Of a DNA stretch of 64,000 nt, positions 45,161 to 64,000 are shown piece after piece. The position numbers and the translations under genes were made by a program. The notes beneath the pieces were generated by a model. It was not told the origin of the DNA, did no database searches, and saw only the letters and a program-made list of their open reading frames with translations. The DNA comes from Macrostomum lignano (lineage: Eukaryota). Within the stretch, counting starts at the first letter, position 1. Every line of letters starts with the position of its first letter. The DNA is taken from assembly GCA_002269645.1 (NCBI GenBank), contig NIVC01001182.1, positions 279,337 through 343,336 on the forward strand. The letters run 5' to 3'.

Positions 45161-48100
45161 AAGTCTTAATCTAGATAAAAGGGTCATGGGATCCCACAAG
45201 TATCCCACTCTGAATCATATAGTATGATTCAGTGCCTAAAACATGCCTAAAACATGCCAATAGTGCCTAAAAAATTAGGAGTGCATTGGCCTTGCATACC
45301 AAAAGTAGACATGCACAATTGGCATGTATCACTCCTAAGAAAATAGTAGGCCTATATATACACTTGGCATGTACTTTAAAAAATAACTATATAAAATCAT
45401 ATGCACTATAGAAAAAGTGACTGTGAAGTAGAAAAAGATGAAAAAAAGTTTATTTTTAGCATAAAATTGCAAGCTTTCTAGTTTTTTAGCTTGTAATAAA
45501 GCATTTAAACAAATCTTCGCATGTATTAATTTTTCTACTATGAATAGCATTGCAAAAAAATCACAAAAATCAACTAAATTATTAGCCAAAATGGGGTCCA
45601 TTATGCAATTCAAAAAGGTAATTTATTATCAAATAGTGATGGACCAAATATAGATTTTTGCAAGTTTCTAAAACCAAATCTACAAAAAAATTCCGAATCC
45701 AAATCTGAATATCTAAATGTGTTTCCAAATGTAGACAAAAGTAAATGGTAAATCACAGGAATAACAATGACACCTTTTAGTGACAAAAATGCCGAGCTAA
45801 AATGCCACATACAGATGGCCACATACTAAGATGGCCATAGCTCTAAATGGCTACTTGGATAGAAATAGGTCTATATATTTCCTTATTTCCTATTGACTGT
45901 GATTGGGATAGGGTAGGCCTATGACCTAGCTTCAAGTCTCTTTCATCTCTACCCTCTCCTTTTATCTGCTTATCTTATTGTAACCATTTTTGTCTCTAAC
46001 CCTACAATATACTAGGCTTGATAAAATTTTGATTGCCTATCTAAACCTCCCATTGCAACCCTACATCTCCCCACCCAAAGCTATCCAATAGAAAACCAGT
46101 TGTCATTTTCTGTGACCCCTACCCTAGCTGTGGCCATCTTGGTGTGTGGCCATCTTGGTCTTACACCAATAAAATACTAGTTGACAATTTGACAAGGATC
46201 CTTATATCTAGCCTATATAATTCCTATTTGACTTACGCCTAGTATAGGCCTAAAAAGACAATAAAAGGATAAATTAGGGCCTGCTTTTTAAAATTGGTCA
46301 ATTAATAAAAAAGAAAATATTAAATTAAGGCCCTAACCTAAATAAATGTTTCTCTACACTTAGGCTTATATGGCCTAGGCCTATTGAAAAATTGATAAAG
46401 TGGCTAAAAAATTTTACTAACTCAACTTATTTTAAATAGGGCCTAGTTATTCAAGTTCAAGCTCAAGCAATACCATGATTTGCATAGTGTCTTAAAAAGT
46501 TTTAAACTATTCAATGCCCTTTTGGCTTTTGGCATTATTTTCTAAGTTTTGGTACAAAATACATATTTAAGCTTAAAATTAATTGATACTGTGTAGGCTA
46601 ACAGCATAATGGTTTTTGAAGAATGCCTTATTAAATAGCAAGGCTAAGCCTAGTGTTTTACTACTAGGCTAAATGATAGGCCTACAGTTTCAACATATAT
46701 ATTACCTAGTCCAGCCTCAACTGGGCTTCATTTTCATAATACTACAGTTCCATGGGACATAGTGGGCCTCTACAGATGGCATAGGCCCTAACTGTCAACT
46801 ACTCAACTCTAGCCAGCCAGCTCCAGCTGGTACTCCACTGACCAGTGGGCCCCACTTTTATTCTGCTACCACTGTGTATATAGTGTATACAACATAGATG
46901 TACACATGCAAAATAATGAATGAAAACAGTTAACTGCTAAAACAATGTAATTGGTTGCCTTGAGCACAATCCAATCAAACATTTGTCTGAGCAGCTAGGC
47001 GAAAATATGATTAGAAAGTGGTCGGTCACAGCCCACAGGCTTATGATGGGGTCGTTCTCAAAGTTTAGTCGTAAGCAGTGAAACAAATATTTTTGAAAAT
47101 CAGCCTGAAATATTGAATCTTTTCTTATTTTAGCTCTAAAAGGACTTAAAAAATATATGCCTCTCATGGGTCTTAATCTTTTTTAACATTGAACTTTTGA
47201 TGTTAATCTCATCAGAGTGCGCTATTTCATTTTTCGATATATATTTTTATTATCGCACGAGCTATAATACCCACTTTAGAGAAGCTACATTCTGTTCACG
47301 TGGTCTTATTAAAGAAGAAAATTGATAAATTTTATTTATAACTTTGGTTAACACAACCTAGAACCCATTTAACTCTTTCGATTGCAAAGCAGATGTTGCT
47401 ATTTCGATTTTTGCTAGAAACGTAACATTATGAATGATTAAAAAATGCACTTTTAATTAATTTGTTCTGTTGATAGAATAAGCTAATAGCTGCGTTTTCT
47501 GCTGTTTTTTTAAGAAAGATAGTCATATCTAACACTAAAGTATCAATTAAGGCAGTTTCATTCTATATTAAAAAAGAAAAGTTAAATAAATTCAATTTTA
47601 AGTTTTTTTCAATAGCACAAAATTAACCTAACAAAGAGAGATTTCGCTGACTACAACAAAGCAAGTAGCACCAAAGTTATTTTAATTTAAAGTCCTCATC
47701 TGTGGGATGAGAAAAAGTACCACTTTTTTGTCTCTAGTTATGAAAAAAAAATTTCTCAGCATATTGTTAGGTTTTTTGGATGTTTTTTATGTACGCTCGT
47801 ATTTAGATGAATTTTTGCTATTAATCACCCAATATGTTAGTCAGAACAAACAGAATTTCATTTATGTAGATAAAATTGACTATTTTTCTCTTAAAAACAG
47901 TCGTTTTTTGTTGTTTTCACACAATTTTTTTAACTGATTTAAAATTTGTATTGTAAGTTACAAGTAAACATAATGAGTCAAAACAAGAGGTAGTAGAAAC
48001 TGAAAAGAAAATAAGAGTAACGAATAATAAAAAAGTTGCATGATTTGATTAGTCAAGAAATAGTATAAAAACAATTTTGCATCTGATTTATTATCTATGA

Positions 48101-49017
48101 AATTAGCTGTCTGAAGCACAAAAAATTAATTTCTTTGAAACATTAAATTCATTCTCATATGTTCTGCAATTCATTAAAGATATATATGTAGCAACTTAAA
48201 CATTCAGTTGATACTTTCCACCTTTGGATGCATATAGCTACTAACAAGAAAAAAGACAAAAGAAAAAACTTAATTGCCATTGATGCTGGCAATGTAATAT
48301 TAAATATGGTACAGAAAGATGGAATCTCTACAGAGTGCTGCCACACGAATTTGTGAAGTGTTTAACAGATTAGTCATGGCAGTACCATAACAGACATACT
48401 ATATTTTATATTACTCTTCGATTGACAATTACGCTTTAGATATGTTTTAGATGATGATTTTCCATTGGGACTGACTCTATATACCGAGGCCAGACACAGT
48501 TAAGTGCGGCTGACAGCACTGAAGCGGCGGTTAACAGAGAATGCGATGAGCTGTGGCCTGTGGAGACAGCCAGCTGATGTACGAGCATCAGTAAAAGGGA
48601 AAGACATCCAATAGTGTCTTGCTATTGGTTTGTTACATGTACAGCGAACATCTACTTTTATTCTAATGTGATCGATTTAATTCTACTGACCCAATTGGCT
48701 AAAGCACTGTAAACTGCACACCTCTCGGACGGATATGTAATGCCATTTGCTGCACTTTTACCTGTTTCTCTGCCAGAACACCAGCATCATTGTATGTGCC
48801 ACAATGCTAATGAAATATTTTAAAATATATGTTATTGTTCTTCTTCTGGTCTCTCACTTCTATGGCTCTTGTTCTACTTCAAATATCAATGTGAGAGCCA
48901 AATAACTGAGGCGGCGGATTCAACTGACTTTTCCTGATGATGCAAACACTTGATGGTAACTTACAGACCGTTGTATTTGATGGTCACAATCTCGAGATGT
49001 TTTCTCACAAAATATAA

Positions 49018-49463
49018 TGTCTAAGGTGGAATTCCAAATAAGAAGCTCGTTCGATTTAAGTCACAAGGTGTTTCTAGTTGTTCGGGTGAACCGAAGGTTC
49101 AGTCTATTGTGAAACGTGGATTGGGTGTTGGTTTGGCTTTAGTAAGTCGACTTATAAGTTTTGGTGTTTGGGTTGAGACCCTAACTGTGTCAATCAAAAT
49201 AGTCAAACGAGGTAAGCTAGGAGAATGGCGAAGGAGAGGCAAGGGCGCGGAGAGGCGGAGCGAGCAGAAAAAGGGGCGAGCTTCTTGCTTGGTTAACATG
49301 AGCTTTTATAGTACTTTTCAGTCTTGATCGCATTGGATGGTACATAACTGCTTTTCATTGGTTGAGGTTGGGGTCGTGTCCTCAGCTTTTGCTATTTGGA
49401 GCGCATTCATTGGTTAAAATACATTCAATCTGGATGGGAGCTTTCTAGAGCCAAAATGTATCA
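49018..49463 (-). promoter_or_regulatory. Putative 3' LTR (U3 with three CCAAT boxes and a TATA box)
   Basis: The minus strand begins TGATAC at 49463, directly after a purine-rich tract. CCAAT at 49409-49413, 49357-49361 and 49332-49336; TATAAAA at 49304-49310. The CA end is ambiguous (candidates near 49018, 49068, 49079, 49107). No second LTR copy in the window. Confidence 0.55.
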
Positions 49464-49481
49464 CTTCATTCGCTCCATTTT
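49464..49481 (-). other. Putative polypurine tract
   Basis: Minus strand AAAATGGAGCGAATGAAG abuts the TG of the putative LTR. Confidence 0.45.
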
Positions 49482-50926
49482 TCGGGGAAGCGAGGCCCTC
49501 CGAGCGCATAAAAACAGAAAAAGAATAGTAGGGGGTTAAAATTGATAAAATTGCAGAAAAAGATAACGCATTGTAGTGAACGAGAAAAGTTGTCGCAGAA
49601 AAAATAGTGCGCAGTGAATAATGTTAGCAAAAATGTTTGAGTAAAAGGGAACCAATTTAAGCAAGGTAACATAGGTTAAAGTACAACATCAGTTTAAATA
49701 GCGAAAGAAGGGATAGCGCAGAGGGCCTTTAGTTAGGCTAAGCTAAACTAGCTAAGCAAGGATGGAATAAAACGCAGCGAGGGTAACCAAAAAATCGATA
49801 AAATGGGTGTACAGAGCAAAATGGAGGTTTAGCGACGCAAGCTTAAAGTGAAAACGCGGTGAGTTAAAAGGAGGGTAATAAAAATCATTGTACATCGAAA
49901 GTTGGGGGGGGGGTTAGCGAGGAACCGCTCAGCTAATAAATCATGTACAAAGTAGAGGTTAAAATTTTAACTGGGGAAACGAAAAAGATAAAAATTCTAG
50001 GAAAAATTGTACAGTCCAAAGGGGGTATATAACACAAGGCTTTAAAATGGAGCAAGGCGAGTTAAGCGATTTTTTGACTGACGGTTAATAATCAAGTAAA
50101 TTCGATTCATCATGAGCACAAGGAAGAACTTGCGGTTTTTGCTAGGCGACTTAGCAAAGCGGTCCCAAGATGATTGGGACCTTGGCGACAGGCGGTGGGC
50201 GATCACGCTCGTCCTTCTCGCTGTGCTGGGAGTGCTGGTGCTGCTGCTGCTGCTGTGCCAATGTTGCCGTTGCTGTCGTTGTTGTCGGCGCAACTGCTGC
50301 AGGTCGGGCGCGCCTGGAGCGTCGACTGCGGTAGCAGATGTGGAGGCGCCGCCAGCGGAGTCGGTGGTGTAAGAGCCGAGCTGCTTTGCTGGTTCGTCCG
50401 GCCTTCTGAACGCAACAACGGCCCTTTTTAGGGCCACCACTTGATGTGATGCCGAAGTTGTCAGATAAGCAGACTGTGCAGTCATGAAGGAACAAACGTT
50501 GTTGAGCCGTATGCTTTAGTGCTAGTTGGTTGACTTAGGTGAAAGCAGCGCCAGGGACAGAGCGATTTGCAGAGACCAGGCATAGTGTAGGGCGATGGCT
50601 GCGTAGATCAAGGTTGTGGCTTGAATCCGGTTGAAGCAGCGCCAGAGACAGCAATTGGCAGTGACCAGGCACAGAGCAGCAGTCGTGTAGGTCAGGGTTG
50701 GGCAGGGTTGAGCAGGGTTGAGCAGGGTTGAGCAGGGTTGAGCAGGCTAGCGCGTGATGACTTTTGAAAAAGCAGTTGACAGAATAACAGAGAAAAATAG
50801 CGTAAGCTTTACACAAGTGAGCGCAAAAGAGCGGAGGAGTAATAGGCAGAAGAACGGAAAATATTTTTTGAGTATTTTTGAACAATTTTTGTAGTGTTTC
50901 AGCGCCAATATTGAAGAAAAAGCGGA

Positions 50927-51883
50927 TTAAAATAGTGAGCGATGATGGTGAATCAAGTCATAAAAAAGAGCGTATGCCAGTCGAGCAAAATTAATATTAG
51001 GATCAGAAGGCGGAGAATGCTGAATACGCTTGATGAAGAAGGTATGAAGAGTGGCGTACTCTGGCAAGGTGTTAGGATAGCCAACAAGAGCATTTCGTAT
51101 ACGGTGAATATCGTATAAATATCGACGAAGGGGAGGACAAGAGAAAGGAAAAATAGTATGGGCAACTACCGAGCGAGAATAAAAATCGATAATTATAAAA
51201 GCAAAGTTTCTTGAACGCGTGGAGAGAATGAAAACAGCGTGGGTGAAGAAAAAATTGTGCGGATACAAACGATTGAGTGTGCGTATCATAGCTTTCTTAG
51301 TAGCACGAGGAGAAAATGGAGGAAAAATTTGATAAACATAAGGGGCGAGAGAATCGAAAGAGGTTAAATAATTTTGTAGCGTAAAAGTTAACTGTTGCGC
51401 CGAAAGATTAGCAGCATCATGGCGGAATTGTTGCCATGGGTAGCGCAGAGAGGAAAGCAACAAAGGCCAAGTGTCTTGGTTAAAGCGTAGGCATGATTGA
51501 GGGAGAGTAGAAGCAGAGAGTTGAAAGAAATCGTCGATAGACATATTAGGAGAAAAAAGAAAATGTAGGATTGGTACGAAGCTGCGGTTGAGAACGTCAG
51601 TCATAGTGGGAGAAAAGTTCTGTATACGTGGTCGTGAGTGAGTACGACGCAGCACACCAAATAGACTAATTCGCAGAACGCGGAGCATCTTAGGATAAAA
51701 GCGATGGCAGCGGATAACATAAAAACGAGAGAAGAAAGCGGAGGCCATGCGTAGCCGTTGGGGTTCACCAATAGTTTCAGAATAAAATATTGCTTCAGTG
51801 AACCAAGCAACAACGGTTGCGAGGCAAATAAGATCATGATTTAACTGTGGTCGGATATCCACTGGTTGCGGAAATGGATCCAT
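50927..51883 (-). CDS. Accessory ORF of the retroelement, 318 aa, unknown function
   Basis: Uninterrupted ORF from ATG 51883 (MDPFPQPVDIR), between integrase and the 3' LTR; non-repetitive; no recognised motif. Confidence 0.6.
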   Translation of the reverse strand: MDPFPQPVDIRPQLNHDLICLATVVAWFTEAIFYSETIGEPQRLRMASAFFSRFYVIRCHRFYPKMLRVLRISLFGVLRRTHSRPRIQNFSPTMTDVLNRSFVPILHFLFSPNMSIDDFFQLSASTLPQSCLRFNQDTWPLLLSSLRYPWQQFRHDAANLSAQQLTFTLQNYLTSFDSLAPYVYQIFPPFSPRATKKAMIRTLNRLYPHNFFFTHAVFILSTRSRNFAFIIIDFYSRSVVAHTIFPFSCPPLRRYLYDIHRIRNALVGYPNTLPEYATLHTFFIKRIQHSPPSDPNINFARLAYALFYDLIHHHRSLF

Positions 51884-52187
51884 AAGAGAAAGGAAAAAGG
51901 AGAAAAGCAATAGATACACAAAATATTGTTTTAGCGTATGAGCTCTGCAATGTGAAGAGGGAAAAGAGAGAAATTTTGTAGCTTTTGTTGATAAAACGGA
52001 AAATAAAAGTTCATTGTGTCAGTTCGTCAATACTCGTAGTCACGTAAAGAGTCGCAATGCAGGGAGAGAGCAAAAGCTAGAAAAGAAGGAAAGAAAAAAG
52101 GAAGAGAAAGAAAGGAAGAGAAAGCAATATTGTCAGTCAAGGAAAAGAAAGAAGAAAAGAAATTTAGAAGGTTTTTTTTTTGATCAT

Positions 52188-55100
52188 TCACGACTTCTTG
52201 TTCTTCGATCGTAGGTTGTAGCCGTGCGTCTGTGGCTGACCTGGTGGCTCATCAGTGGACGTGGTTTGCAGCGCGATGGACTTGCTCAATGGCGGCCGAT
52301 GGTTGTGGTGGACCTGAATGTCATCAGTTGTGAACTCAGGTAGGTGACTAGGTCCAGCGCTGAGTCCATCTCCAGGCCATGGTTTGAGCTTGGAGGCATG
52401 TACCACGATTGGTCGTTCGCTTGGCCGGTTGACATCGGAAATCAGTGCGTTCTGATCGGAGAGCCATGCTAGTAGACGCATTGGGCCACGATAAGGATTG
52501 GAGAATTTTGTCTCCTTCGTTGCTGAGACATCCAAATAGCATCGTGCACCCGGGCGTATGTAGCGGCTGTTGGTCTTCTTATCAGAGTTTTCAGCGCGCT
52601 GTTCAGCTGAGTTGTGCAGAAGTTCCTTGGCGACTTCTCTGGCAAGCAAAATAGCTGAACAGGTCAAATTGACTGGTTTAATAACGTCCATGTATGCAGT
52701 TGTCTGGTGTTCCATGATCCGTGCGTTGGGTGGCAGGAAATCTCGAGCGAAGAACAAGTAGAATGGTGATTCATTCATCGTTGAGTGTGCGGCGGTATTG
52801 ATTGCTAGTGTCACCGCGGGTAGGAAGTCAATCCAGAGATCTGGTTTGTCATGGACAAAGGCCGTAAGGGTTTGCTTCAGTGTCTTGTGTGCGCGTTCGA
52901 CGAAGTTGCTGGATGGTTGGTACACCGAGGTGTAGATTAGATGGATTCCAAGGGCACCCATAAACTCTCGAAATTCTTGCGAGATGAATTGGGGTCCGTT
53001 ATCTGAGATGATGTGTGCTGGTAGTCCTGCGAAGGCGAACACACGGTTGAAGAGACTGTTGCAGATGGTTGCAGAAGTTGTCTCAGTTAGCGGGATTGTG
53101 AACAGGAATTTGCTAACGCCGCATTGGGCTGTGAGTATGTACTTGTAGACGTCGCGGCCGTGTGAAGCTGGTGGCAGTGGACCTACAAGGTCGATAGCCA
53201 AATGAGAGAAAACCTCGTTGAATTTGACGGCTTTGTGCAGCGGTCGCAGTCGAGGTGCTGTTTTCGCTTTGTGGCAGATTTCGCAGTTGTTAATGAAATT
53301 GAAGACGTCTTGCCGTAGTGTAGGCCAGTAGTAGAAATGACTGATTTTGTCTGCTGTCTTTTGGTGACCTAGATGACCACCAAGGGCTGTCGAGTGGTTA
53401 CTGTCAAAAGAGCTTCACGGTAGCGTGTTGGTATCACGAGGCGGCTTCGTCCTTCGTCATCTTCAAAGTATAGAGTGTTTCCGTCCAGGAAATAACGTGC
53501 CAGGTGTCGGCGAACATATTGTTGGTCTTTCTTGGACAGCTCGTGAGTGGGTGATTTTTCCGATAGAAGTGCTTTGATTGTTGACAGTAATGGGTCTTGA
53601 TCAATGGCATCCTGCAGTCCGTTGAATGTTGACAGCGATTGTATCTGACAGACTTTGGGGATGCGTGAAAGGCAGTCCGCTACTACGTTTGATTTGCCTT
53701 TCACATAGTTGAGAGTGAAGTTGTAATCTTGTAGCGCTAGAATCCACTTCTGAAGTCGTTTTGAGATAGGTTGCTTGTCACTGAATAGACTCTTGAGTGG
53801 CTGGTGATCAGTGAAGACGTGGAATTGTTGGTAAGAGGCGTAGAGGAACACGTGTAGCTTCTTTATTGCCCAATAGATGGCGTATGCTTCGCGTTCAATC
53901 GGTGGATAGCGTTGTTCGGTTGGACTTAACGTCTTAGAAATGTAGGCAACCGGGCGTTGGTGGTTGCTGTCGTCTAGCTGTGAGAGTACTGCTCCAATGG
54001 CGGTATCCGAAGCATCAGTGTGCAGAAAGTACGGTTTTCGCGGATTTGGATGAACCAGTAGTATATCCGTAGAGAGAAGTTGTTTCAGCTTTTCAAAGGC
54101 TGCTTGGGCGGCGTTTGTCCAGACGAATTTGTTAGGCTTCGAAGTATTTTTGATGATACTCAGAAGTGGTTGTACTACTCGTGAGTAGCCAGCAATGTGC
54201 GTTCGGTAGAAATTTGCAAGTCCAAGGAAAGATTGTAGTTGTTTAACCGTTTGAGGCACAGGGAAGGTCTTGATTTTCTCGATGAGGCTGGGTGCGGGTC
54301 TAATGCCTTGAGCAGAAACCACAAATCCAAGATATTGTACCTCTGTTTTGGCAAAGATGCATTTTCGTAGTGAAATTCGCAATCCATGATGTCGTAACTT
54401 TTGGAAGAAGCGTTCGATTTCTTTGAGCATGCCGGTGAAGTCTTCGGCGATGAGCATGACGTCATCCAAGTAGGCAATCTGATTTGGAGAGTCAGCTGTT
54501 AACAATGCTACAAGACGGCACATTAAGCTAGGACTGGACTTGAGTCCTTGAGGTAGTCGATTGAATTCCCAAAGTAGGCCGTTGGGTGCAATGAACGCAG
54601 TGTATTTTGTGCTTTCTGGATCGATCCGAACTTGGTAGAAAGCATCTGCTAGGTCACAGAGTGTGTACAGTTTAGCGTTTTTCAATCGATGTAGCAAATC
54701 CGGAATCTTAGGAGGTCGGATGCTAGGAGCACGAATTAGCTTGTTCAGTTTTCGGTAATCCGTCACGAGTCTTAGTTGTCGGCGACCTTGAGCGTCGAGC
54801 GTCTTCTTTTCCACGAGAAGACATGGACTTGAGTATTCCGATTCACTCGGACTGATGATTCCTTTTTGACGGAAGTTTTCGATGAGCTCATCAAACCGTT
54901 CTTGTAGTCCATGAGCGATTGGATAGGGTCTGGACGTGACTGGCTCAGAGTGTGGGTGTAGATGCAGGTGAGCCGTGTATTGGGTAGAGCAACCCATGTC
55001 GGTTGGCAGTAGTGCCAAGACGTCACGGTACTTGTTCATTAGAGTAACTAATTGTTCACTCTGCTCGGTTGAGAGGTGCTGGTTGGCTTGTTTGAGTTGA

Positions 55101-56245
55101 GTACGGATCATGTCAGTCGTAGGTGCTTCTTGTTGCAGCGTGCGGAGACTGTTGATTTGAGCTGCTGGGCGCACGATGTTGTAGTCAGACATGTTAGCCA
55201 GATTTCCAATGACTTGTTGAGGATGCAAGGTTTGCGTTGTCAGCGACGGGTTGGCAATTTCCACAGTGATAGTTTGTCCGTCCGGCTTGACAGAAACAAG
55301 GCAAGTTGGTATCATCAACTGGTGTTTCTGGATCGTGTGGTCCTTAGGGACGAACAGGACAGGAATCGTTGGCTCATGTCGAGAAGAGAGTTTCAGCGTG
55401 ACTTGGTGCGTTGTCTGTGGTGGTAACTCTAGCTTGTTTTGCATCACCGCAGAGGTTTCTTGCAACTGTTGGATGGAGTTGAGCATCGCAAATTGCTCAT
55501 TGCCAAGCTTAGCTGTCGCTTTCGAGTAGTCGAATTGTAGTGGTATTCCCAGTGACTTAAAGGTTTCTACTCCTAAGAGCAAATCATAGTCAGCGTCGGG
55601 GGTGTCGAGCACAAAGGCCGATATCTTGTGGTTGCGTCCATCGATTTCGAGATCAAAAGTAGCCTTTTTGTTGAGGTTTAGTTGTTGTCCTCCTGCACAA
55701 ATGGCGTTCATGTTGGTGTCTTGTAATGGTACTCGAAGCTTTTTGGCGAATGCCGGTGAGATGCAGGAGATCGAGGCGCCGCTGTCAATGAGGGCGGTGC
55801 ATCTGTGTCGAGTATGCGGTGCGTTGCGGCACCACAGGTTGATCATAGTTGCTGTTGTTAGATGCTTCAAAACAAAGGCGTATGAGTAGTTTGCTGGCCA
55901 TTTTGGAACTTTAGGTTCTGGCGGTGGTCTCCGTGGTGGCGGAAGGGTGGCACGAAGTTCAATCGTTTCGATGGGTGCCGAGGGTGTTGGCGCTTGTCTC
56001 GGTGGTATCAGTTGCTGTTGTTGGGAGTAGTCGTTTCGTGATTCCACTCGAGTTGGAGTTCGTTGTTGCCGCAGCACTTGTATAGTGTGCGTTCTGCCGT
56101 ACGGATGGTGCTGGCGACGCAGAGTCGGCCAAGATTGCACACGAAGATAATAACGGCAATGTAGACGATTACAGCTGCTGTTAAGACGAACTTTTCTTGA
56201 TAGTTTGCGACTAGTCGATCCCAGTTGAATATCGACGAAGACCAT
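52188..56245 (-). CDS. pol: Pol: aspartic protease, reverse transcriptase, RNase H, integrase (one 1-nt frameshift near 53400)
   Basis: ALIDSGAS (PR); RLVTDYRKLN, DLADAFYQV, LPQGLKSSP, AYLDDVML (RT); LHTDASDTAIGAVL, EREAYAI, TDHQPL, VADCLSR (RH). After the shift: HSTALGGHLGHQKT...YYWP...CEIC (HHCC), AIDLVGP, ISDNGPQF, VERAHKTLK (DDE), PYRGP, terminal GYNLRS. Confidence 0.93.
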
Positions 56246-58810
56246 AGATTGAGAGAGCTAGTTTTGAGTCCAGGAATGCACTGTCAGCATGTGCTGTTCT
56301 ATGTCGTGTTCGATTCGGAAGTTTGAAAACCGTAATCAGAAAATCACGAGTTTGCATGAACTGGTGCATTAGGTCGGTCACCGTTATCGGACTACGAAGT
56401 GAAGTATAATTGATATCTCCCATAGGTTTGAAGATGCTTTCGGAGACTGAAGTTTGCAAATCGGACAACCGATAGTTTTCATCGGATCTGACATTAGCGG
56501 TTGTGGGTTCAAATCTCGAAAAATTTAGTGTGGTCTTGAATAGCATCGATTGTTTAGGCAGGTAGTAGTATGGGAAGGCGTCGCATGAGATTAGAGCTGG
56601 AGTAGCTGTGGAGACAATACGAGTCGTTGTGTCCAAAAATCCAAGAACAGTATAATTTTGTAGGCGGAATTCCAGTGGGGGGCGCGTGAAGCATTGGTTC
56701 GTCTTGTACTTTGGTTGGACAAAGCGGAACTGATGTAGGGGTTTGCACTGGTAGACGAAGAGGTATCCAGCAATGGATCTAGCTCGCAGAAAGGATCATT
56801 TAATAAGAGTCGAGCAGCGAGCGTTGGTTGTGTGTAGTATAACTGTCGTTGTACTTGAGATTAGTTGCATACATCATGCATTGAGTAGTTGCAAGCTGTT
56901 TCTGTACTTGGAGAAGGTCTTTTCGAGCTTTACTAGCAGCTCCTTGTAGTTGTCCAGCAAGAAGTTCAGCGGATGCGAACGTTGATGAAAGTTGCGCAGT
57001 AGAGTTGCCTGAAGGGGCTGCGATGGTTTTGTCGTCTGTGCTTCGCTTGTTGCGTGGTAGTAGTAGGAGATCCGGTTGACTGCCTTGTGGTTCGTGATGT
57101 GGAACTGCTAGATTCGTGTGAATAGAAGCCAGTTGTGGATTGGTTGTTGTCGCTGGTGAGTTCGTGGTGAGGGTTGAGGTTGCAGACTTTGCTGGTGCAC
57201 TGGTTGTGCTGCTAGAGGTTGAGGTTGTTGGCGGTAAGGTGGTGGTACGAGGTTGTGTCGTCACTTTTGTAGTCGTCGTAGTTGAATCTGCTGTCGTTGT
57301 TGCTGCTGAGGTTGTAGCAGTGGTGGTTGTTGAAGTTGTCGGTGTTACGGTTGTGGTAGGTATTGTTGTCGTTGTAGTCGGTGGCATTGTCGTCGTAGCT
57401 GGTGGTGTTGTCGTTGTAGTCGGTGGTGTTGTCGTTGTAGTCGGTGGTGTTGTCGTTGTAGTCGGTGGTGTTGTCGTTGTAGTCGGTGGTGTTGTCGTTG
57501 TCAAAATTGTAGTTGTTGGTGTTGATTTTGTAGTAGTTAGTATCGTAGTTGTTGGCGTCATTGTTGTAGAAGTGCTTGACGTCGGTGGATGATCAGGTCG
57601 CTCTTGTCGTAAAGGTTGCGGCGGTAGGAATTGTCGTGACTGAGTTGTCGTAGTGAAAGGATGTTGAGTCGTCGATTGCTGAACGGGTAATATTGTTGGT
57701 GGCGTTGGTAGTATCGCTGGTGGTGAACGACGTTTTTGTCTCGAAGAAGTGGTTTCTTCGCTAGTTTGAGGTTTTGGAGTAGCTTCTTCTAATGGGCTTC
57801 GTAAGGTGGCGAGAAATTCTGCTTCTTTGTTGTCGAGGATGTCTACGTATAGACCTTGCGTTGAAAGGTACAACGTCTTACGGACGCCAGTGCAGGTGAG
57901 AGTGTGAGTCGACGGCACTGGGTTGAAGGTTAGTCCCAATGTTTGATCATTAGTTAAGAACAAGCCGGAGTTTAAGTTGCCTTCAAGAGTACGAAATGGT
58001 TTTAAAGGACAATCAGCGAGTGGTGGAGGTGTCCAAATAAGATTTAGATGTCTTGGTCCTTTCACGTCAATTTGGTAGATTGCTTCAGTTTCCAAAGGAT
58101 CCCAGGGGGATGTTAGTATCGGCAAAGGTAGGTTGAAAGCTCGCATTTCTTGTGCAGTTGTTTTAATTGTACAAAATTTGTCGGCGAGTTTGCAGTTGTC
58201 CATTGGGAAGGACAAAGATTCCATTTTTTGATCTGCTGTTGAGTAGGCTGGGATTCCGGTGATCACTGTTGTTACTATTTGTTCTGAATGTGAACCAGGA
58301 GTGCAACGCACAGCATTTTGCGTGTTGAATGTCGATTGCAGGCGTTGGATAGACTGAGTTGACGCAGTCTTTAACACTAATGATCCATCAGGCGATAGCT
58401 TTGTTCGTGCCCAGTTTTCACAATCAGCTTGAGTGACTGGTTGCGGTTCCAACTCTACCAGGGCGGATGTCCAGGTTCTTATCACCGCCTTATCACATCT
58501 GATAGTGATTTTCTCGCGGAAACAGACAGTCATAACCAGAGAACTGGTTTCCACGTTCGTTGTGTAAAGTTCCAGTTTCAACGGGAGTGTCGGCGTCGTT
58601 TGGTGTTTGAGCTGTTCACAACGGATCTCATGTGGTATCGTGAAAATTCGTGGGATCTGGTTGTACGGACAGACCATTGGTGTGTCAATGAAGCCCTCGT
58701 GAGATTGTCTCTCAATCGATGGTGGAGTTGACGTCGTTATCGGCGTAGCGTTGGCTAGTGCGAAGAGTGAAGTTGCTAGGCACAGGAGAAAAAGTGTCAG
58801 TAGTGATCGG
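56137..58810 (-). CDS. env: Env-like class III fusion glycoprotein (herpes gB / chuvirus-G-like), in frame with Gag; broken by single-base deletions
   Basis: Signal-like SLLTLFLLCLATSLFALANA (about 58747-58806), Cys-rich ectodomain, RQKRR and RNKR sites. Across two 1-nt gaps (about 56826 and 56790) the sequence reads NPTLAARLLLNDP-LRARSIAGYLFVYQCKPL...QCFTRPPLEF, resembling the gB motifs NPT...AR..GDV..V..C and CYSRP. TM segment FVLTAAVIVYIAVIIFVC at 56137-56190 lies in a third frame. Confidence 0.75.
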
Positions 58811-60657
58811 CGAATTCCGACGGAAGCTTTCACGGTTTTCTCGCGGTTGTTGTTGCTGGTCGGTGGAGTGTAGGCGTTTGTCACTCTTTCAACCGTACAA
58901 AGGCGAATAGAGTTGATAGTCGCAGCGGCAGTAGTCGGTTTTTTGAGTAAAGATTTCAGCTGCTTAGCGTCTCCAGAGTAGCGAATTTCGTTTCCAAAAG
59001 TCGGTGGGCGTTCATCAACTGTAGCAATGTGCATCAGTTGGGCAGACTCGGGAGCGTCGTGAGTCGTCCATCCAATCTGCGGCTGTTGATTCCATCCTGG
59101 GTGGGACGTTTCAGGGTCCTGAGCAGTGATGGCGCGTATCGGTGGATATTGTTGTTGCGCAAATCTCGGAGGTTGTCGTTGATTGTTGGTGCCGTTGTAT
59201 CGAGGCGGATAGCGTTGCTGAGGCCGGTTTCCATAGTCTTGACGGGGTGGAAATCGTGATTGTTGTGTCGCCGGTGGACCGTAGCCTTGTGTACGTTGGG
59301 CTCGTAGTCGGCACTGGTTAATAGAGTGTCCTGGTTTTCGGCAATAGTTACAGGTCAATCGTGGCGGTCCCTGCTGGTAACGATTTCGCGGGGCATCAGA
59401 GCCGTATTGGGCTGTGTTCCTTCGATCACTTGAGTTAGGTCGGAAGGGACGAGGTTGTTGGTCATTCCTTCGACGACAGTCGGCGGCATAGTGTCCAGGT
59501 CGACCGCAATGATAACAAGTGGGCTTCTGTTGCATATTAGCGATAGGTGGCTTGGTTTGTGTTTGCAGGGAGGCAACCACCTGCTGATTGGCTTCCTTCG
59601 TCGTTTTTTCTAAGGTAGTTAGACGCTCTGTGAGAGCTTTCAAGTCAGTGCCATCAGAGTCCATGGTGGAGTCGCGGATTTGTTCGGCGCGGATGGCCTT
59701 GTTGATTAGCGTACTTTCCGTGGTGATATTTTGCTTCAAGAGTTCTCGTTTGATGTAGGGTAGAGCATTGTTGATAGTCGTAGCCATCAGGGTAGCAAGG
59801 AAGTCTCGGTTGCGCTGGTCGATGACAGCTTGGTTCGCGGGTGGTGTTTCCGGACCGGCACCTTCCGGAAATTCTTCCGGTATTTCCGGCATAGCTGACC
59901 TGAGCTTTCGACGAATATCGGTGAAATAAGACAGGAACGGTTCGCCGTACTGTTGTTTCCGGGTTGTTGCATTATGCAGCGTTAGAGCCGAGCCAATGGT
60001 TACTTCCCGAAGGCGTTGAGACAGTGCCTCAATGGTGGCTGGATAAGAGGCTTGGACTGCGGCAGAGAGGCGACTGTATTCGAGTTTAAGAAGGTCATTC
60101 AGTAGTCGCGGGAAGAGCCGAATCTTTGCGTTCTCCGATAGTCCAAAGGAGCGTGTGATCAAGTCGAACTCTTCAGTGAAGGAGCGGAAGTCATGCATTT
60201 GGTCGATTCCTTTCAGGGATTGACGAATTTCAGCAAGAGCAGTAGCTGAGACGGGATGGTTTGATTGCAATTGCAGACTGCGGTTCATAACGTCAGTAAG
60301 TTCACGGACAGCATTTGTCGCTGCAGCATCAACATGGGGAGCGCCGTCCTGATCAGCCATATCTAGAGTAGATTCTTCAGCAATATCGTTTGGGGCTGGT
60401 TGAACTGTTTCGTCCGCGTCTGTTAGGATGGAGCTGGGTGCTGGTGAGTGTGCACGGTTGTGTTCAAAATGATCCGCGAGAGGGTTATTAAACTCAACGT
60501 TATTTGGTATAAACAGGTTAGGTACTGGTGAACTATTTCGTGGGAGCTGTTCACCTATTTGGCAGTCAGAAGTTTCTAAATTTTGTTCAGGGGGTCTGTT
60601 AATATTTGAGCTTTGAAAAACTGGTCCGGAACGTAAATCTCGGACAGGTGTGGTCAT
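58810..60657 (-). CDS. gag: Gag region of the retroelement polyprotein (capsid-like plus 2 zinc knuckles)
   Basis: First ATG at 60657 (MTTPVRDLRSG). Capsid-like segment FRSFTEEFDLITRSFGLSENAKIRLFPRLL; knuckles CYHCGRPGHYAADC and CNYCRKPGHSINQC; continues without a stop into the env-like region (ORF 56800-60717). Confidence 0.88.
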
Positions 60658-61691
60658 TAACAAGAATTCAATCAATAATTTCAAGGCAACGATAGCACAA
60701 AATGTAACTAATAGCAAAGTAGAGTGTCAAATTCAAAGTGAGCAAACGGCAATGGCTTTCAGGGTTGCGGTTGGCGGACTGGCTGGGGAAGGGAGAAAAA
60801 GAGAGACTGTGTAATTTTTTAACTGTGATCTGCGACGAGCTTTGAAAATCGAAGTAATTTTGAATTGAACTGCCTTTTGATTGGTTCTGAAACTTTGAAT
60901 TTTGAAATTTTGAACTCGGAAATCTTGAATTGAACTGCCGTTTGATCGGTTCTGAAACTTTGAAACTGAATTTGATAAAGGAGCTCCTGAATGTTGGACT
61001 AGACGGACATCAGTGGTGGCCAATAAAATCGAATTTGTATCATTGAAGTCGGCAGTTTTCTTTTTCTTGAAGTCGGCAGTTTAGTCTTTTGAAGTCGGCA
61101 GTTTTCTTCTGAGAATTTGTTCTGGCTTTTTGAATTTCGAATTTGAATTTTGAACTATCTGACGAGTTTCAGCTAGGGGGGTTGATTTCATAATTTTAAG
61201 CAAGCGTAGAGTAATGTTTTTGTAGTTTTGTAAATTTGCTATTTTTTAATTTTTGAAAATTTTATAATTTTTATTGATCGGACTGATCATTTTGTAACTT
61301 TAACATGATAAGAGCAGTACGGGTTGTACGAAATGAACTATAAGCAATGGTATTGTTTTTTGTGTTTTCAAGTTTTATTATTTTTTTTTGCGATCTAATG
61401 ATCATTTTGAGTTTGTCGCAGGCTACGAAAATACTATGTGAATAGTCTAGCATAGATGAAGCGAAGAAGAGTAAATGGAGACGTGCGTTTTTTGAGGTTT
61501 TAAATTTTTTATATTTTTTGTCGATCAAATGATCATTTTCAAAGTAGTGTTTACACCATGCAGTTTAAAGTAACAGAAGGTGAGCTGGAAATGAGACTAC
61601 GATCAAAAGACAATGAGAGAGTATAGTATATTTACAGGGCCCAAGGGGGCTGATGCTGAGGCGATAGAAATTGCGGCTTATGGGGGGGGAA

Positions 61692-62500
61692 TCACTCAGG
61701 GCGACCACCGTATGCGGAGGCGAGAAGTTTGGGGCAAGGAGAGTCGCTAACGTCAAAACAGGGGTCGTCGGTAAAGTCGGGGTGGCCAACTATATGTTCC
61801 CGGTGGAACCGAGGGAGGGTGAGGAAATGAGCTTCAATGGCCTGACCTCTAGAACTGCCGCGATGGCGCGTCCAGGTCGACCAGAAGTGGTAGCGGAGTT
61901 GGTAAGAGGCAAGGTGGAACAGGCTTAAGGGTGAGTCGGAAACGGGGGGAACAAAGCTCTGGAGCAATAGTTCGTGGCGTTCACACTCCTCGTCATCAAT
62001 TTTGCGACAGTATATTCGGCGGAGATCTTTGTAGCGAAGAGGAACGCCGGTATGAAAATCAACGCAACGCAGAGCGCGGAAGAGTAGCTCGAAGTCCTGG
62101 CCTCGGAGGGCTATATCGACGATTGCGGACTTAAAAGCTCCTTGCAGGGGCGGCAGATGGAGGCCTTCGAGATGGAATAGCATATTGTCTATCTGCCCCG
62201 GGATGTGGCATTGGAGGCAGTCATAAATGTGGGTCAGGTAGGAATCAGTAATGGTGAGGACAAACTTGGTTACGGGACCAGGGCGTCCATTACAACTGAA
62301 GAGATCGTGAAACAGGGAATCCGGGATTGCGGGCTTGACGGTACGAGGAAACGGAAAGGGCGAGAGATAGGAGGGGTGATAGTAAATGAAACTGCGGCGA
62401 TGTTGGCAATAATACGTCTGACACTGGCAATCAAATAGTGGGACATCATCGGGGCAGTAAGGGATGCGGCTTCAGCGTAGATACGTGCGAAAGTAGTCAT
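61692..62500 (-). CDS. Accessory ORF upstream of gag, about 269 aa if one 1-nt deletion near 62273 is restored
   Basis: ORF 62270-62500 (MTTFARIY...DALVP) joins a stop-free frame (VTKFVLTITDSYLTHIYDCLQCHIPG...) that runs into ORF 61692-62183. Confidence 0.45.
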
Positions 62501-62891
62501 GTTGAAATTATAATAAGTGAATTAAAGTACTTTAATTTAATTTACAGTGTTACCAAGTTGCTGGAACGGTAGAGACTGGATGTGAAGAGTGTCGTTCTTG
62601 CAGTTGGCTTCGGTAGTACTGGAGAGGAGATTAACTCAAGAGTGCAGGATTCTGTCAATCTATAGTGCTGCAAAAGTGCTAGTATAATAGTGCTGTTGAT
62701 GGCGAATTCTGAAGGGAGTTGGGAACGGAGTTTGCGGCGTCCTCATTGGTTGGTTAGGGGGATTCCAAGCCATGCCTGGGAGACGGGGCGGTTATATTGG
62801 TGAAACTGAAGGGGGACGGGTAAGGCTTGCTACTCCTTCGCGACTCCGCTACTTCAAACACTCCCGGACGACGATTGCTCGACTATTTATT

Positions 62892-63173
62892 ATGGCTATG
62901 CAAGCTCAACTCGAAAGGACGAGGAAGACGGCAGATCAATGGTGGTGGCTCTGTCGGCGGTTGTGGGAGCTCGAATTGCTGCTGGAGGACGGCTGGCCCC
63001 GCGACACGAAGCGGGGTGCTCGGCGGGGTTCGCGACTCCTGTCAGCGTTCAGGCGGCTAGTCACACCCGTCCGTAAGTGGTGTGAGCGCCGCCTCGAATG
63101 GTGGCAGGAGCTCCAGCACGTGGAAGAAGAGATTGTAGCGGGACGCCGATGGGGTAATTTTATCCTAGTTTAA
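62892..63173 (+). CDS. Antisense Trp-rich small ORF (93 aa from ATG 62892), unknown function
   Basis: MAMQAQLERT...; nine Trp; followed by an AT-rich spacer (63175-63370). Confidence 0.35.
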   Translation: MAMQAQLERTRKTADQWWWLCRRLWELELLLEDGWPRDTKRGARRGSRLLSAFRRLVTPVRKWCERRLEWWQELQHVEEEIVAGRRWGNFILV

Positions 63174-63371
63174 TGTAATGGAAGGGGCTAACCGACTGAA
63201 GGTAGGGGTAATCTTGAGTTTAATTTTTTGTAATTTTGTATAGTTTTTGTAGATATGCTAACAACAATTGAATTACTTATTAGTGTACATATATTTATAT
63301 TGTTATTGTTGCGATTACCCTTTTGTACGTGTGAATGTTTTTGTAAAAAAATACATAACTAACCTGTTTAA

Positions 63372-63964
63372 CTATTTGAATTGATAAAGGCTGCTCAGGT
63401 TAGAGGGGGGGCTATGGGTAGGGCTCAATCTTGACAAAGCAAAGGATGGATAGCGTAACAAGATGGTTAACAAAATAAGTAGGGCAAAAGCTGTATGGGG
63501 CACTAAGCATCTATTGCCTTTGGCAATAGGGAGATGAGAGAAAAGTAGAAGTTGTTTGGATCTTAATCCATCATACAAAAACGAGAAATGGCTAGGAAAA
63601 GAAAAAATTCCTGGGGAAATTGTTTATCAGAGATCGTGAAAAGGTCGCTGAACCGGAGGGTGAGTGGCAGGATGGAGCTGGCCTGGACAGTTTGATTAAG
63701 GAAAAGATTTTTTGTGGGAGATAAAAGTTGAGTGATGGTTTTAATCAAGAAAAGAGGTCGCTCTGGAGGTCGAGTAGGCACACAAAGTCTGATGTGGGCA
63801 GTTTGTTTAAGATTAATATTTATTGGAGGGAACTGGAGTTGATTAAACACGCAAGAAATTCCCAGCATCCCGAATGATCCATAGAAGGCAACTGCCAGAA
63901 TCAGCAATCCGAAAAAAAAACTTGGGTCGATAAGGATTTGATGGATGGGCTCGTGGGTTTGCAA
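63372..63964 (-). CDS. Putative membrane protein ORF (about 197 aa, one 1-nt shift near 63575)
   Basis: ORFs 63563-63964 and 63372-63578 overlap at a T-run. Hydrophobic stretches FFFGLLILAVAFYGSFGMLGISCVF and AFALLILLTILL. No ATG at the start, so the start is uncertain. Confidence 0.3.
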
Positions 63965-64000
63965 ACAGTGAGTTTGGAGTGTTTAATCAAGAAAAATAAT

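Follow-up and report, generated by a model that had tools for sequence, protein, structure and literature searches.

What is the envelope-like reading frame near one end of a 64,000-nucleotide (nt) stretch of the Macrostomum lignano assembly (contig NIVC01001182.1, positions 279,337 to 343,336; hereafter the window), and what kind of genome does it belong to? A preliminary description, made from the sequence alone, had seen there the class III fusogen of a Gypsy-type element. We propose, with a probability of roughly 0.8, that the region is a copy of a recently spreading Ty3/Gypsy (Metaviridae) long terminal repeat (LTR) element that carries a glycoprotein B (gB)-type class III env between gag and pol; the identity of the element and the fold class of its Env we hold more firmly still. 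The demonstrated part of this reading is its gene order, fold class, selection on env and recent insertions. The features are listed below in window coordinates, with open reading frame (ORF) lengths in amino acids (aa) and with dN/dS, the ratio of nonsynonymous to synonymous substitution rates.

48811..49468, minus strand: 3' LTR, 658 nt with TG...CA ends; 40 scored matches at 93-100%
50112..50372, plus strand: antisense 86-aa ORF, one transmembrane helix followed by a Cys/Arg-rich stretch; dN/dS 0.10-0.13; 20 assembly matches
50927..51883, minus strand: 318-aa accessory ORF after pol; dN/dS 0.32-0.40
52188..53414, minus strand: integrase with H2C2 zinc finger and rve core (Pfam); frame break near 53400
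53723..54121, minus strand: RNase H (PF17917, PF17919)
54320..54805, minus strand: reverse transcriptase (PF00078); YLDD at 54472
55556..55807, minus strand: aspartic protease (PF13975); DSG motif near 55790
56140..56190, minus strand: Env transmembrane anchor, the predicted second membrane pass; frame breaks near 56100 and 56255
56191..57042, minus strand: Env C-terminal subunit with long central helix, beta crown and arm (profile and model); frame breaks near 56790 and 56850
57043..57054, minus strand: second furin-type site, RNKR (motif scan; aligned among env copies)
57055..57726, minus strand: Thr/Ser/Pro-rich mucin-like insert with 21-nt repeats, predicted disordered; dN/dS 0.25-0.41
57727..57741, minus strand: first furin-type site, RQKRR (motif scan; aligned among env copies)
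57742..58746, minus strand: Env N-terminal subunit, a split PH-like domain with inserted fusion domain (profile and model); dN/dS 0.11-0.17
58747..58812, minus strand: internal signal/anchor sequence, the predicted first membrane pass, with basic residues on its N side
58813..60657, minus strand: gag, in frame with env; two CCHC knuckles at 59517 and 59352
61692..62500, minus strand: accessory ORF of about 269 aa before gag; dN/dS 0.24-0.38; one frame break near its 5' end in the window
62892..63173, plus strand: antisense 93-aa accessory ORF before gag; dN/dS 0.07-0.14; 31 assembly matches

The element and its copies

Pfam domains of the window frames follow one another as gag knuckle, protease, reverse transcriptase (RT), RNase H and integrase, and the order of the whole element is gag, internal signal sequence, env ectodomain, anchor, pol. 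A 1308-aa frame (56800-60726) starts with gag and ends with the first two thirds of env. Env is thus no separate gene downstream of pol: it sits between gag and pol, with gag and env in one frame, a point missed in the preliminary description. The window copy has no 5' LTR because the window stops at the contig end, and a complete sibling copy measures 16,862 nt. Paired LTRs are 100% identical in the copies on C362, C1512 and C695, 98.6% in C1325 and 96% in C2365, and 4-nt target duplications were read from the flanks of three of these five paired copies examined (C362, C1512, C695). The primer-binding site, a region cut off in the window copy, matches host tRNA-Glu genes in sibling copies. 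The pol domains, LTRs, target duplications and primer site bear out the Gypsy-type assignment; the Pfam scan of window proteins gave no Bel/Pao family match, and Ty3_capsid was matched by relatives below the cut-off only.

The N-terminal piece of env has at least 120 matches in the assembly (117 of 202 candidates scored), with identities between 26% and 100%. Among named database proteins, the closest belong to Macrostomum lignano, one of them nearly identical in RT to one family of this assembly, and the more distant ones to nematodes (Globodera, Caenorhabditis). In an RT tree built without named references or an outgroup, from which rows with fewer than 330 aligned residues were dropped, the assembly's families group apart from named nematode relatives. 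Near-identical copies lie at the ends of contigs C1049, C2099, C2531, C2693, C4335 and C1182; since some of them have just the 5' LTR and the rest just the 3' LTR, a single locus may in some cases have been split into two such copies. Elsewhere in the window, positions 1-33000 hold dense minisatellite arrays with periods of 8 to 32 nt, no tRNA gene was found in the 64 kb, and Rfam gave no match in 48000-64000.

A gB-type class III envelope protein

The Env motifs of the preliminary description are present where it had put them, on the minus strand from 58677 to 56140 in the window frames. On the N-terminal side are MVCP (58677), DCENW (58425), NCKLADKFC (58197), LIWTP (58041) and DCPL (58014); on the C-terminal side, distributed across three frames, are QCMMYATNL (56883), TLAARLLLNDP (56824), LRARSIAGYLFVYQCKPL (56789), CFTRPPLEF (56693), GFLDTTTRIV (56642) and ISC (56591), with sequons NST (57006), NYT (56657 and 56411), NFS (56525) and NRT (56315) and a transmembrane stretch from 56190. 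An "NPT" motif occurs in no frame of the window: it had been filled in across a frame break, at a position where 6 of 10 aligned natural env copies have it. The gene had also been described as visible only after frame repair, which is incorrect: against a profile built from 69 distant relatives, the unjoined 699-aa and 194-aa window frames already reach 96.0 and 65.1 bits and align in the expected order, while none of 400 shuffles exceeds 3.0 bits.

Ten env copies of the assembly share 12 invariant cysteines and are 24-46% identical to the sibling copy. PF24664 (Monjiviricetes fusion protein), the best Pfam family, is found in 7 of the 10 (best E 1.4e-8), and PF00606 is matched weakly by 2 of them. 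The Atlas lead for env names gp64, Monjiviricetes and rhabdovirus G (0.90). With a 10-sequence env profile, gB makes up the top 14 of 19 PDB matches (best E 0.035), and the helix, NP, AR and CYSRP region of the preliminary description aligns with gB. The env profile finds 421 relatives among 1.84 billion representatives; an 82-row profile matches herpesvirus gB in 51 of 51 PDB hits, with a best E of 4.7e-20. Between subfamilies, dN/dS of env is 0.00-0.17 outside the insert and 0.25-0.41 within it, alongside 0.04-0.12 for pol, and no in-frame stop occurs in the env comparisons. Env is under purifying selection between subfamilies.

The fold was modelled on the natural open-frame ectodomain of a sibling copy (L034, 850 aa) rather than on the window copy. 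The AlphaFold model has a mean pLDDT of 69.8 and a pTM of 0.57, with 497 of 850 residues at pLDDT of at least 70; residues 327-584 are disordered, and a 47-residue helix spans 596-642. All PDB matches listed by Foldseek are herpesvirus gB (E 2.2e-15). By VIA-align, the model matches herpes simplex virus 1 (HSV-1) gB with Z 11.6 (425 aligned, root-mean-square deviation [rmsd] 10.2), domain IV (the beta crown) of pseudorabies virus gB with Z 10.9 (168 of 175 aligned, rmsd 3.9), and Chandipura G with Z 6.8. Residues 36-315 match PH domains (Z 5-7) and also gB and vesiculovirus G. Three copies of residues 585-845 were modelled as a helix bundle scoring 0.46, against 0.01 for the best control; 20 of 30 solved pairs reach this mark, as does 1 of 23 single chains, with runs sharing at least 23% of contacts at pLDDT of at least 55. 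This pass may stem from likeness to solved gB trimers. The models thus support a gB-type class III fold in which a PH-like domain with inserted fusion domain would be followed by a long central helix and a beta crown. Profile and model comparisons with gB, both suggested in the preliminary description, come out in favour of its gB-type class III proposal. Its label "chuvirus-type" finds no particular support, since chu-related proteins come lower in the ranking than nyamivirus-like and herpesvirus ones: the BFVD matches ahead of them include an unnamed protein, Nyavirus G, the G of a rhabdo-like virus, one entomopoxvirus protein and gB. The class III model matches three entomopoxvirus proteins in BFVD (W6JPK9, Q9YVZ3, Q9YW15), two of them uncharacterised.

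The Thr-rich insert, which the preliminary description does not mention, occupies the loop joining the PH-like domain to the central helix. In all three assembly families that have an insert it is flanked by two R-x-x-R sites, whereas families without one have a single site. Two furin sites surround unrelated inserts in 4 of the 63 relatives whose loop could be anchored, and S/T/P-rich stretches occur in 2 of 150 database relatives. Because relatives hold unrelated inserts there between furin sites, this loop of Env is an insertion hot spot. The insert probably acts as a shield or is removed: with furin cleaving at each of its flanks, it would either cover the glycoprotein or be shed. The database relatives P0038, P0043, P0053 and P0069 hold other inserts at the same loop, three between two furin sites and one rich in Pro, Arg and Thr.

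Several observations weigh against the reading as a whole. The sibling env alone matches no Pfam family, single window Env pieces gave no env match in Pfam or PDB, and the window's 194-aa piece alone matches no gB chain in PDB. Foldseek gives only low global TM-scores to gB, 0.27-0.33 by query at an rmsd of 12-19 A. By eye, the likely fusion loops of the window family are only modestly hydrophobic; the hairpin tips of a sister family are aromatic. A strict furin site is present in the env loop of only 39 of the 63 anchorable relatives, among which loop spans above about 330 are probably mis-anchored. None of the 14 assembled family copies compared is open from gag to integrase. Processing, particle formation and fusion are inferred.

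Frame breaks in the window copy

Between gag and integrase the window copy has five frame breaks, near 56850, 56790, 56255, 56100 and 53400, and every sibling copy is broken at points of its own. At the five window sites, 12/13, 12/13, 10/13, 10/12 and 8/10 siblings, respectively, are unlike the window copy. Private small indels are as numerous as private substitutions in 12 siblings (86 and 86; 1 and 66 in the 13th), they are mostly losses (68/87), and 18 of 62 single-base losses fall within runs of at least three, compared with a background of 12.6%. We favour assembly error over decay because the private indels match the substitutions in number, are mostly losses and fall in base runs; the window breaks are probably long-read assembly errors, mostly private to this copy.

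It is also conceivable, at a clearly lower but still substantial probability, that the element is the same and that the window copy and its family have truly decayed, the breaks being real mutations. The absence of any fully open copy from this family is then set against sister families of the same assembly, which do have open copies; each window break is common to one to three siblings, and true slippage likewise prefers base runs. Real decay would, however, have to produce the equality of private indels and substitutions, the bias to losses and the base-run excess. It is further opposed by the env comparisons free of in-frame stops, and by the set of siblings sharing a break, which differs from site to site.

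A proposed membrane-threaded polyprotein

In eight sister-family copies, gag, env and pol share one open frame of 2458-2866 aa. In 8 of 8 long frames of the assembly, exactly two hydrophobic passes precede the protease, with a net positive charge on the N side of the first, and the first pass is present in 18 of 22 database gag-env-pol chains (22 of 24 such relatives were taken for this count). Among 150 relatives, a single chain unites gag, env and pol in 24, while 28 have gag followed by env and 21 have env followed by pol; the protease precedes env in 2, and in 75 a flanking domain is absent.

Based on this topology, we propose a single Gag-Env-Pol polyprotein that would thread the endoplasmic reticulum membrane twice. 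Gag would remain cytosolic, and the internal signal sequence would send the Env ectodomain into the lumen. The Env anchor would then bring protease, RT and integrase back to the cytosol, where the viral protease could free them; release would be the work of signal peptidase and the viral protease. The Env trimer would merge an enveloped particle with a second cell in the same animal, such as a germ-line cell reached from the soma. We think somewhat better than even of the processing scheme itself, with its two passes and its cleavages; that particles are still made is a more tentative proposition, to which we give a little less than an even chance. The infectious potential named in the preliminary description is likewise putative: env is under purifying selection, but no family copy among the 14 is open all the way from gag to integrase.

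Alternatively, Env and Pol may not form a single chain in vivo: Gag-Pol without Env would arise by splicing or by regulated changes of frame, and Env would be made rarely or serve only inside the cell. A 1:1:1 ratio of Gag, Env and Pol is indeed unusual for retroelements, and Cer1, likewise without a stop between gag and pol, is described in the available text of PMC10309623 as using splicing. We regard this arrangement as unlikely, given that sister families retain a single open frame of about 2500-2900 aa, whose two-pass topology is consistent, and that the window frame breaks are not conserved. Since the breaks are not conserved among siblings, they are not programmed frameshift sites, and programmed frameshifting at them was ruled out.

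Accessory reading frames

Besides gag, env and pol, the element has four accessory ORFs under purifying selection: those of 318 aa and about 269 aa, and the antisense ones of 93 aa and 86 aa. The ORFs of about 269 aa and 93 aa lie in a 2-kb stretch before gag that is full in 11 copies and lacking in three siblings examined. The 269-aa ORF gives a poor structure model (pLDDT 40.8), and the Atlas entry for the 318-aa ORF is blank. Another family has, after pol, a 31% relative of the 93-aa ORF (E 3e-6). Beyond this, a search for relatives of the 318-aa, 269-aa and 93-aa ORFs, which covered near lengths only and so does not show absence, found none. A likeness seen by eye between the 318-aa ORF and a 260-aa ORF of a sister family was rejected (E 0.87). 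ORFs of 253-260 aa after pol appear by eye to be common to three sister elements (L038:1199-1996 and the C4628 and C1674 families).

Of 9 elements from 4 families, 6 carry an antisense ORF like the 86-aa one, at a distance of 1.25-1.9 kb from the 3' end; the same filter passed no such ORF on the sense strand or in the first 3.5 kb of the nine elements. None of the six starts with MG. An overlapping sense frame of 140-146 aa has a dN/dS of 0.25-0.28, which probably reflects shared third positions, so that dN/dS alone does not settle the coding strand. The small size, single transmembrane helix and basic stretch after it are shared with the sORF2/FAST-like proteins of MDG1-group elements (63-107 aa, sometimes after pol), as given in the available text of PMC11952523. 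The 86-aa ORF differs in being antisense and Cys-rich, in lacking the MGxxxS/T motif, although some sORF2s also lack a myristoylation motif (PMC11952523, same text), and in standing beside a full env rather than replacing it. Any function given to the 86-aa ORF is a guess. Extra ORFs in LTR elements have been described in rotifers (PMC5408684) and antisense ORFs in plant Retand elements (PMC11963269), in the portions of those papers available.

Sister families hold further frames. In the C2112 and C717 families (L036:7873-8538, L037:8323-9120), two Cys-rich ORFs follow pol. One of them in each family matches a RING finger (zf-C3HC4_3, E 4.8e-7; zf-RING_2, E 1.7e-4, below the cut-off), which suggests ubiquitin-ligase accessory genes. 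In C1753, C1176, C87 and C2121, the upstream accessory stretch and primer site are repeated (at about 3.4-kb spacing in C1753) or rearranged, with no full env found nearby, and these are possibly non-autonomous derivatives. At L086-L089 (C2285, C3805), sister-family copies adjoin further ORFs, which we take by eye to resemble dUTPase, deoxynucleoside kinase and family-B DNA polymerase, as in Polinton-like elements.

Relation to known elements

In fold, Env shares with herpesvirus gB (HSV-1 2gum, Epstein-Barr virus 3fvc, human cytomegalovirus 5cxf) the split PH-like domain, long trimer helix, crown and C-terminal anchor. It differs in being only about 9-14% identical, in its shorter ectodomain, in its place inside a retroelement polyprotein and in its 220-residue insert. 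Furin cleavage in the same loop is known for several gBs. With the G proteins of nyamiviruses, chuviruses and other mononegaviruses (PF24664), it has the class III fold and the PF24664 match in common.

A recent capture of a chuvirus glycoprotein, as in the mosquito Bel/Pao Anakin elements, is suggested by PF24664 as the best Pfam family and by chu-related glycoproteins among the BFVD matches, but is very improbable, since retroelement chains are numerous among the 421 profile matches, those with names coming from one flatworm and nematodes, nyamivirus and herpesvirus proteins outrank the chu-related ones, and env copies are only 24-46% alike between the assembly's families, the gene therefore being old in the lineage. 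As far as the Anakin elements are described in the available text of PMC7642597, the window element differs from them by its Gypsy-type pol and shows no sign of recent capture.

The preliminary description had implied that such an element would be new. A Gypsy element with a gB-type env is real, but the GAG-ENV-POL arrangement is already published: the main text of Chary and Hayashi (eLife 2026, PMC13524379) reports gB-type env on Ty3/Gypsy elements across animals, and that order in nematodes, bryozoans and flatworms, citing Sacco 2022. The HSV/gB-type GAG-ENV-POL errantiviruses described there share with our element the Ty3/Gypsy pol, the position of env, the multicopy state, the LTRs and a tRNA primer site. 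Of the features of that group, env between gag and pol with signal sequence and anchor is present here, and continuous frames are seen in sister families, their lack in the 14 assembled copies of this family being possibly due to assembly error. Among the nine flatworm rows of the same source, one resembles the C2112 sister family in its LTR (864 nt) and primer site; none has a 658-nt LTR with a Glu primer site, a weak negative given that 7 or 8 of the rows lack LTR or primer data. The non-canonical nematode endogenous retroviruses of Sacco et al. (2022, J Gen Virol, as cited in PMC13524379) are Metavirus elements with env and pol flipped. Their order is alike, and the assembly's families group apart from the named nematode relatives in the RT tree mentioned above (no outgroup). 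A Thr-rich insert, as in the window family, occurs in only 2 of 150 relatives.

What the present element adds is the insert, the proposed polyprotein and the accessory ORFs. The main text of PMC13524379 makes no mention of polyprotein, fused, in-frame, mucin or accessory, with its figure supplements, which may bear on the point, lying outside that scope. A literature search, with subscription papers mostly outside its scope, did not find the two-pass polyprotein, the mucin-like insert between furin-type sites or the four selected accessory ORFs; searches on the mucin insert, antisense or accessory ORFs, a single-frame nematode element and the host with env gave nothing closer than the papers named.

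Implications

One can go further and picture an actively transmitted, complex endogenous virus of flatworms. Its Gag-Env-Pol would be one membrane-threaded polyprotein in the manner of flavi- and alphaviruses, and its mucin shield would be shed by double furin cleavage. The antisense FAST-like membrane protein from the 3' LTR would provide a second cell-to-cell route, and host-countering accessory genes would be swapped between families. Taken in full, we consider this picture improbable. How a retroelement would package its genome with Gag, Env and Pol as one membrane-threaded chain is an open question, and this host has several young families. The furin-flanked insert and the conserved accessory genes, two of them antisense, with RING fingers in sister families, suggest that these elements are better seen as complex viruses than as simple transposons to which a spare gene was added.

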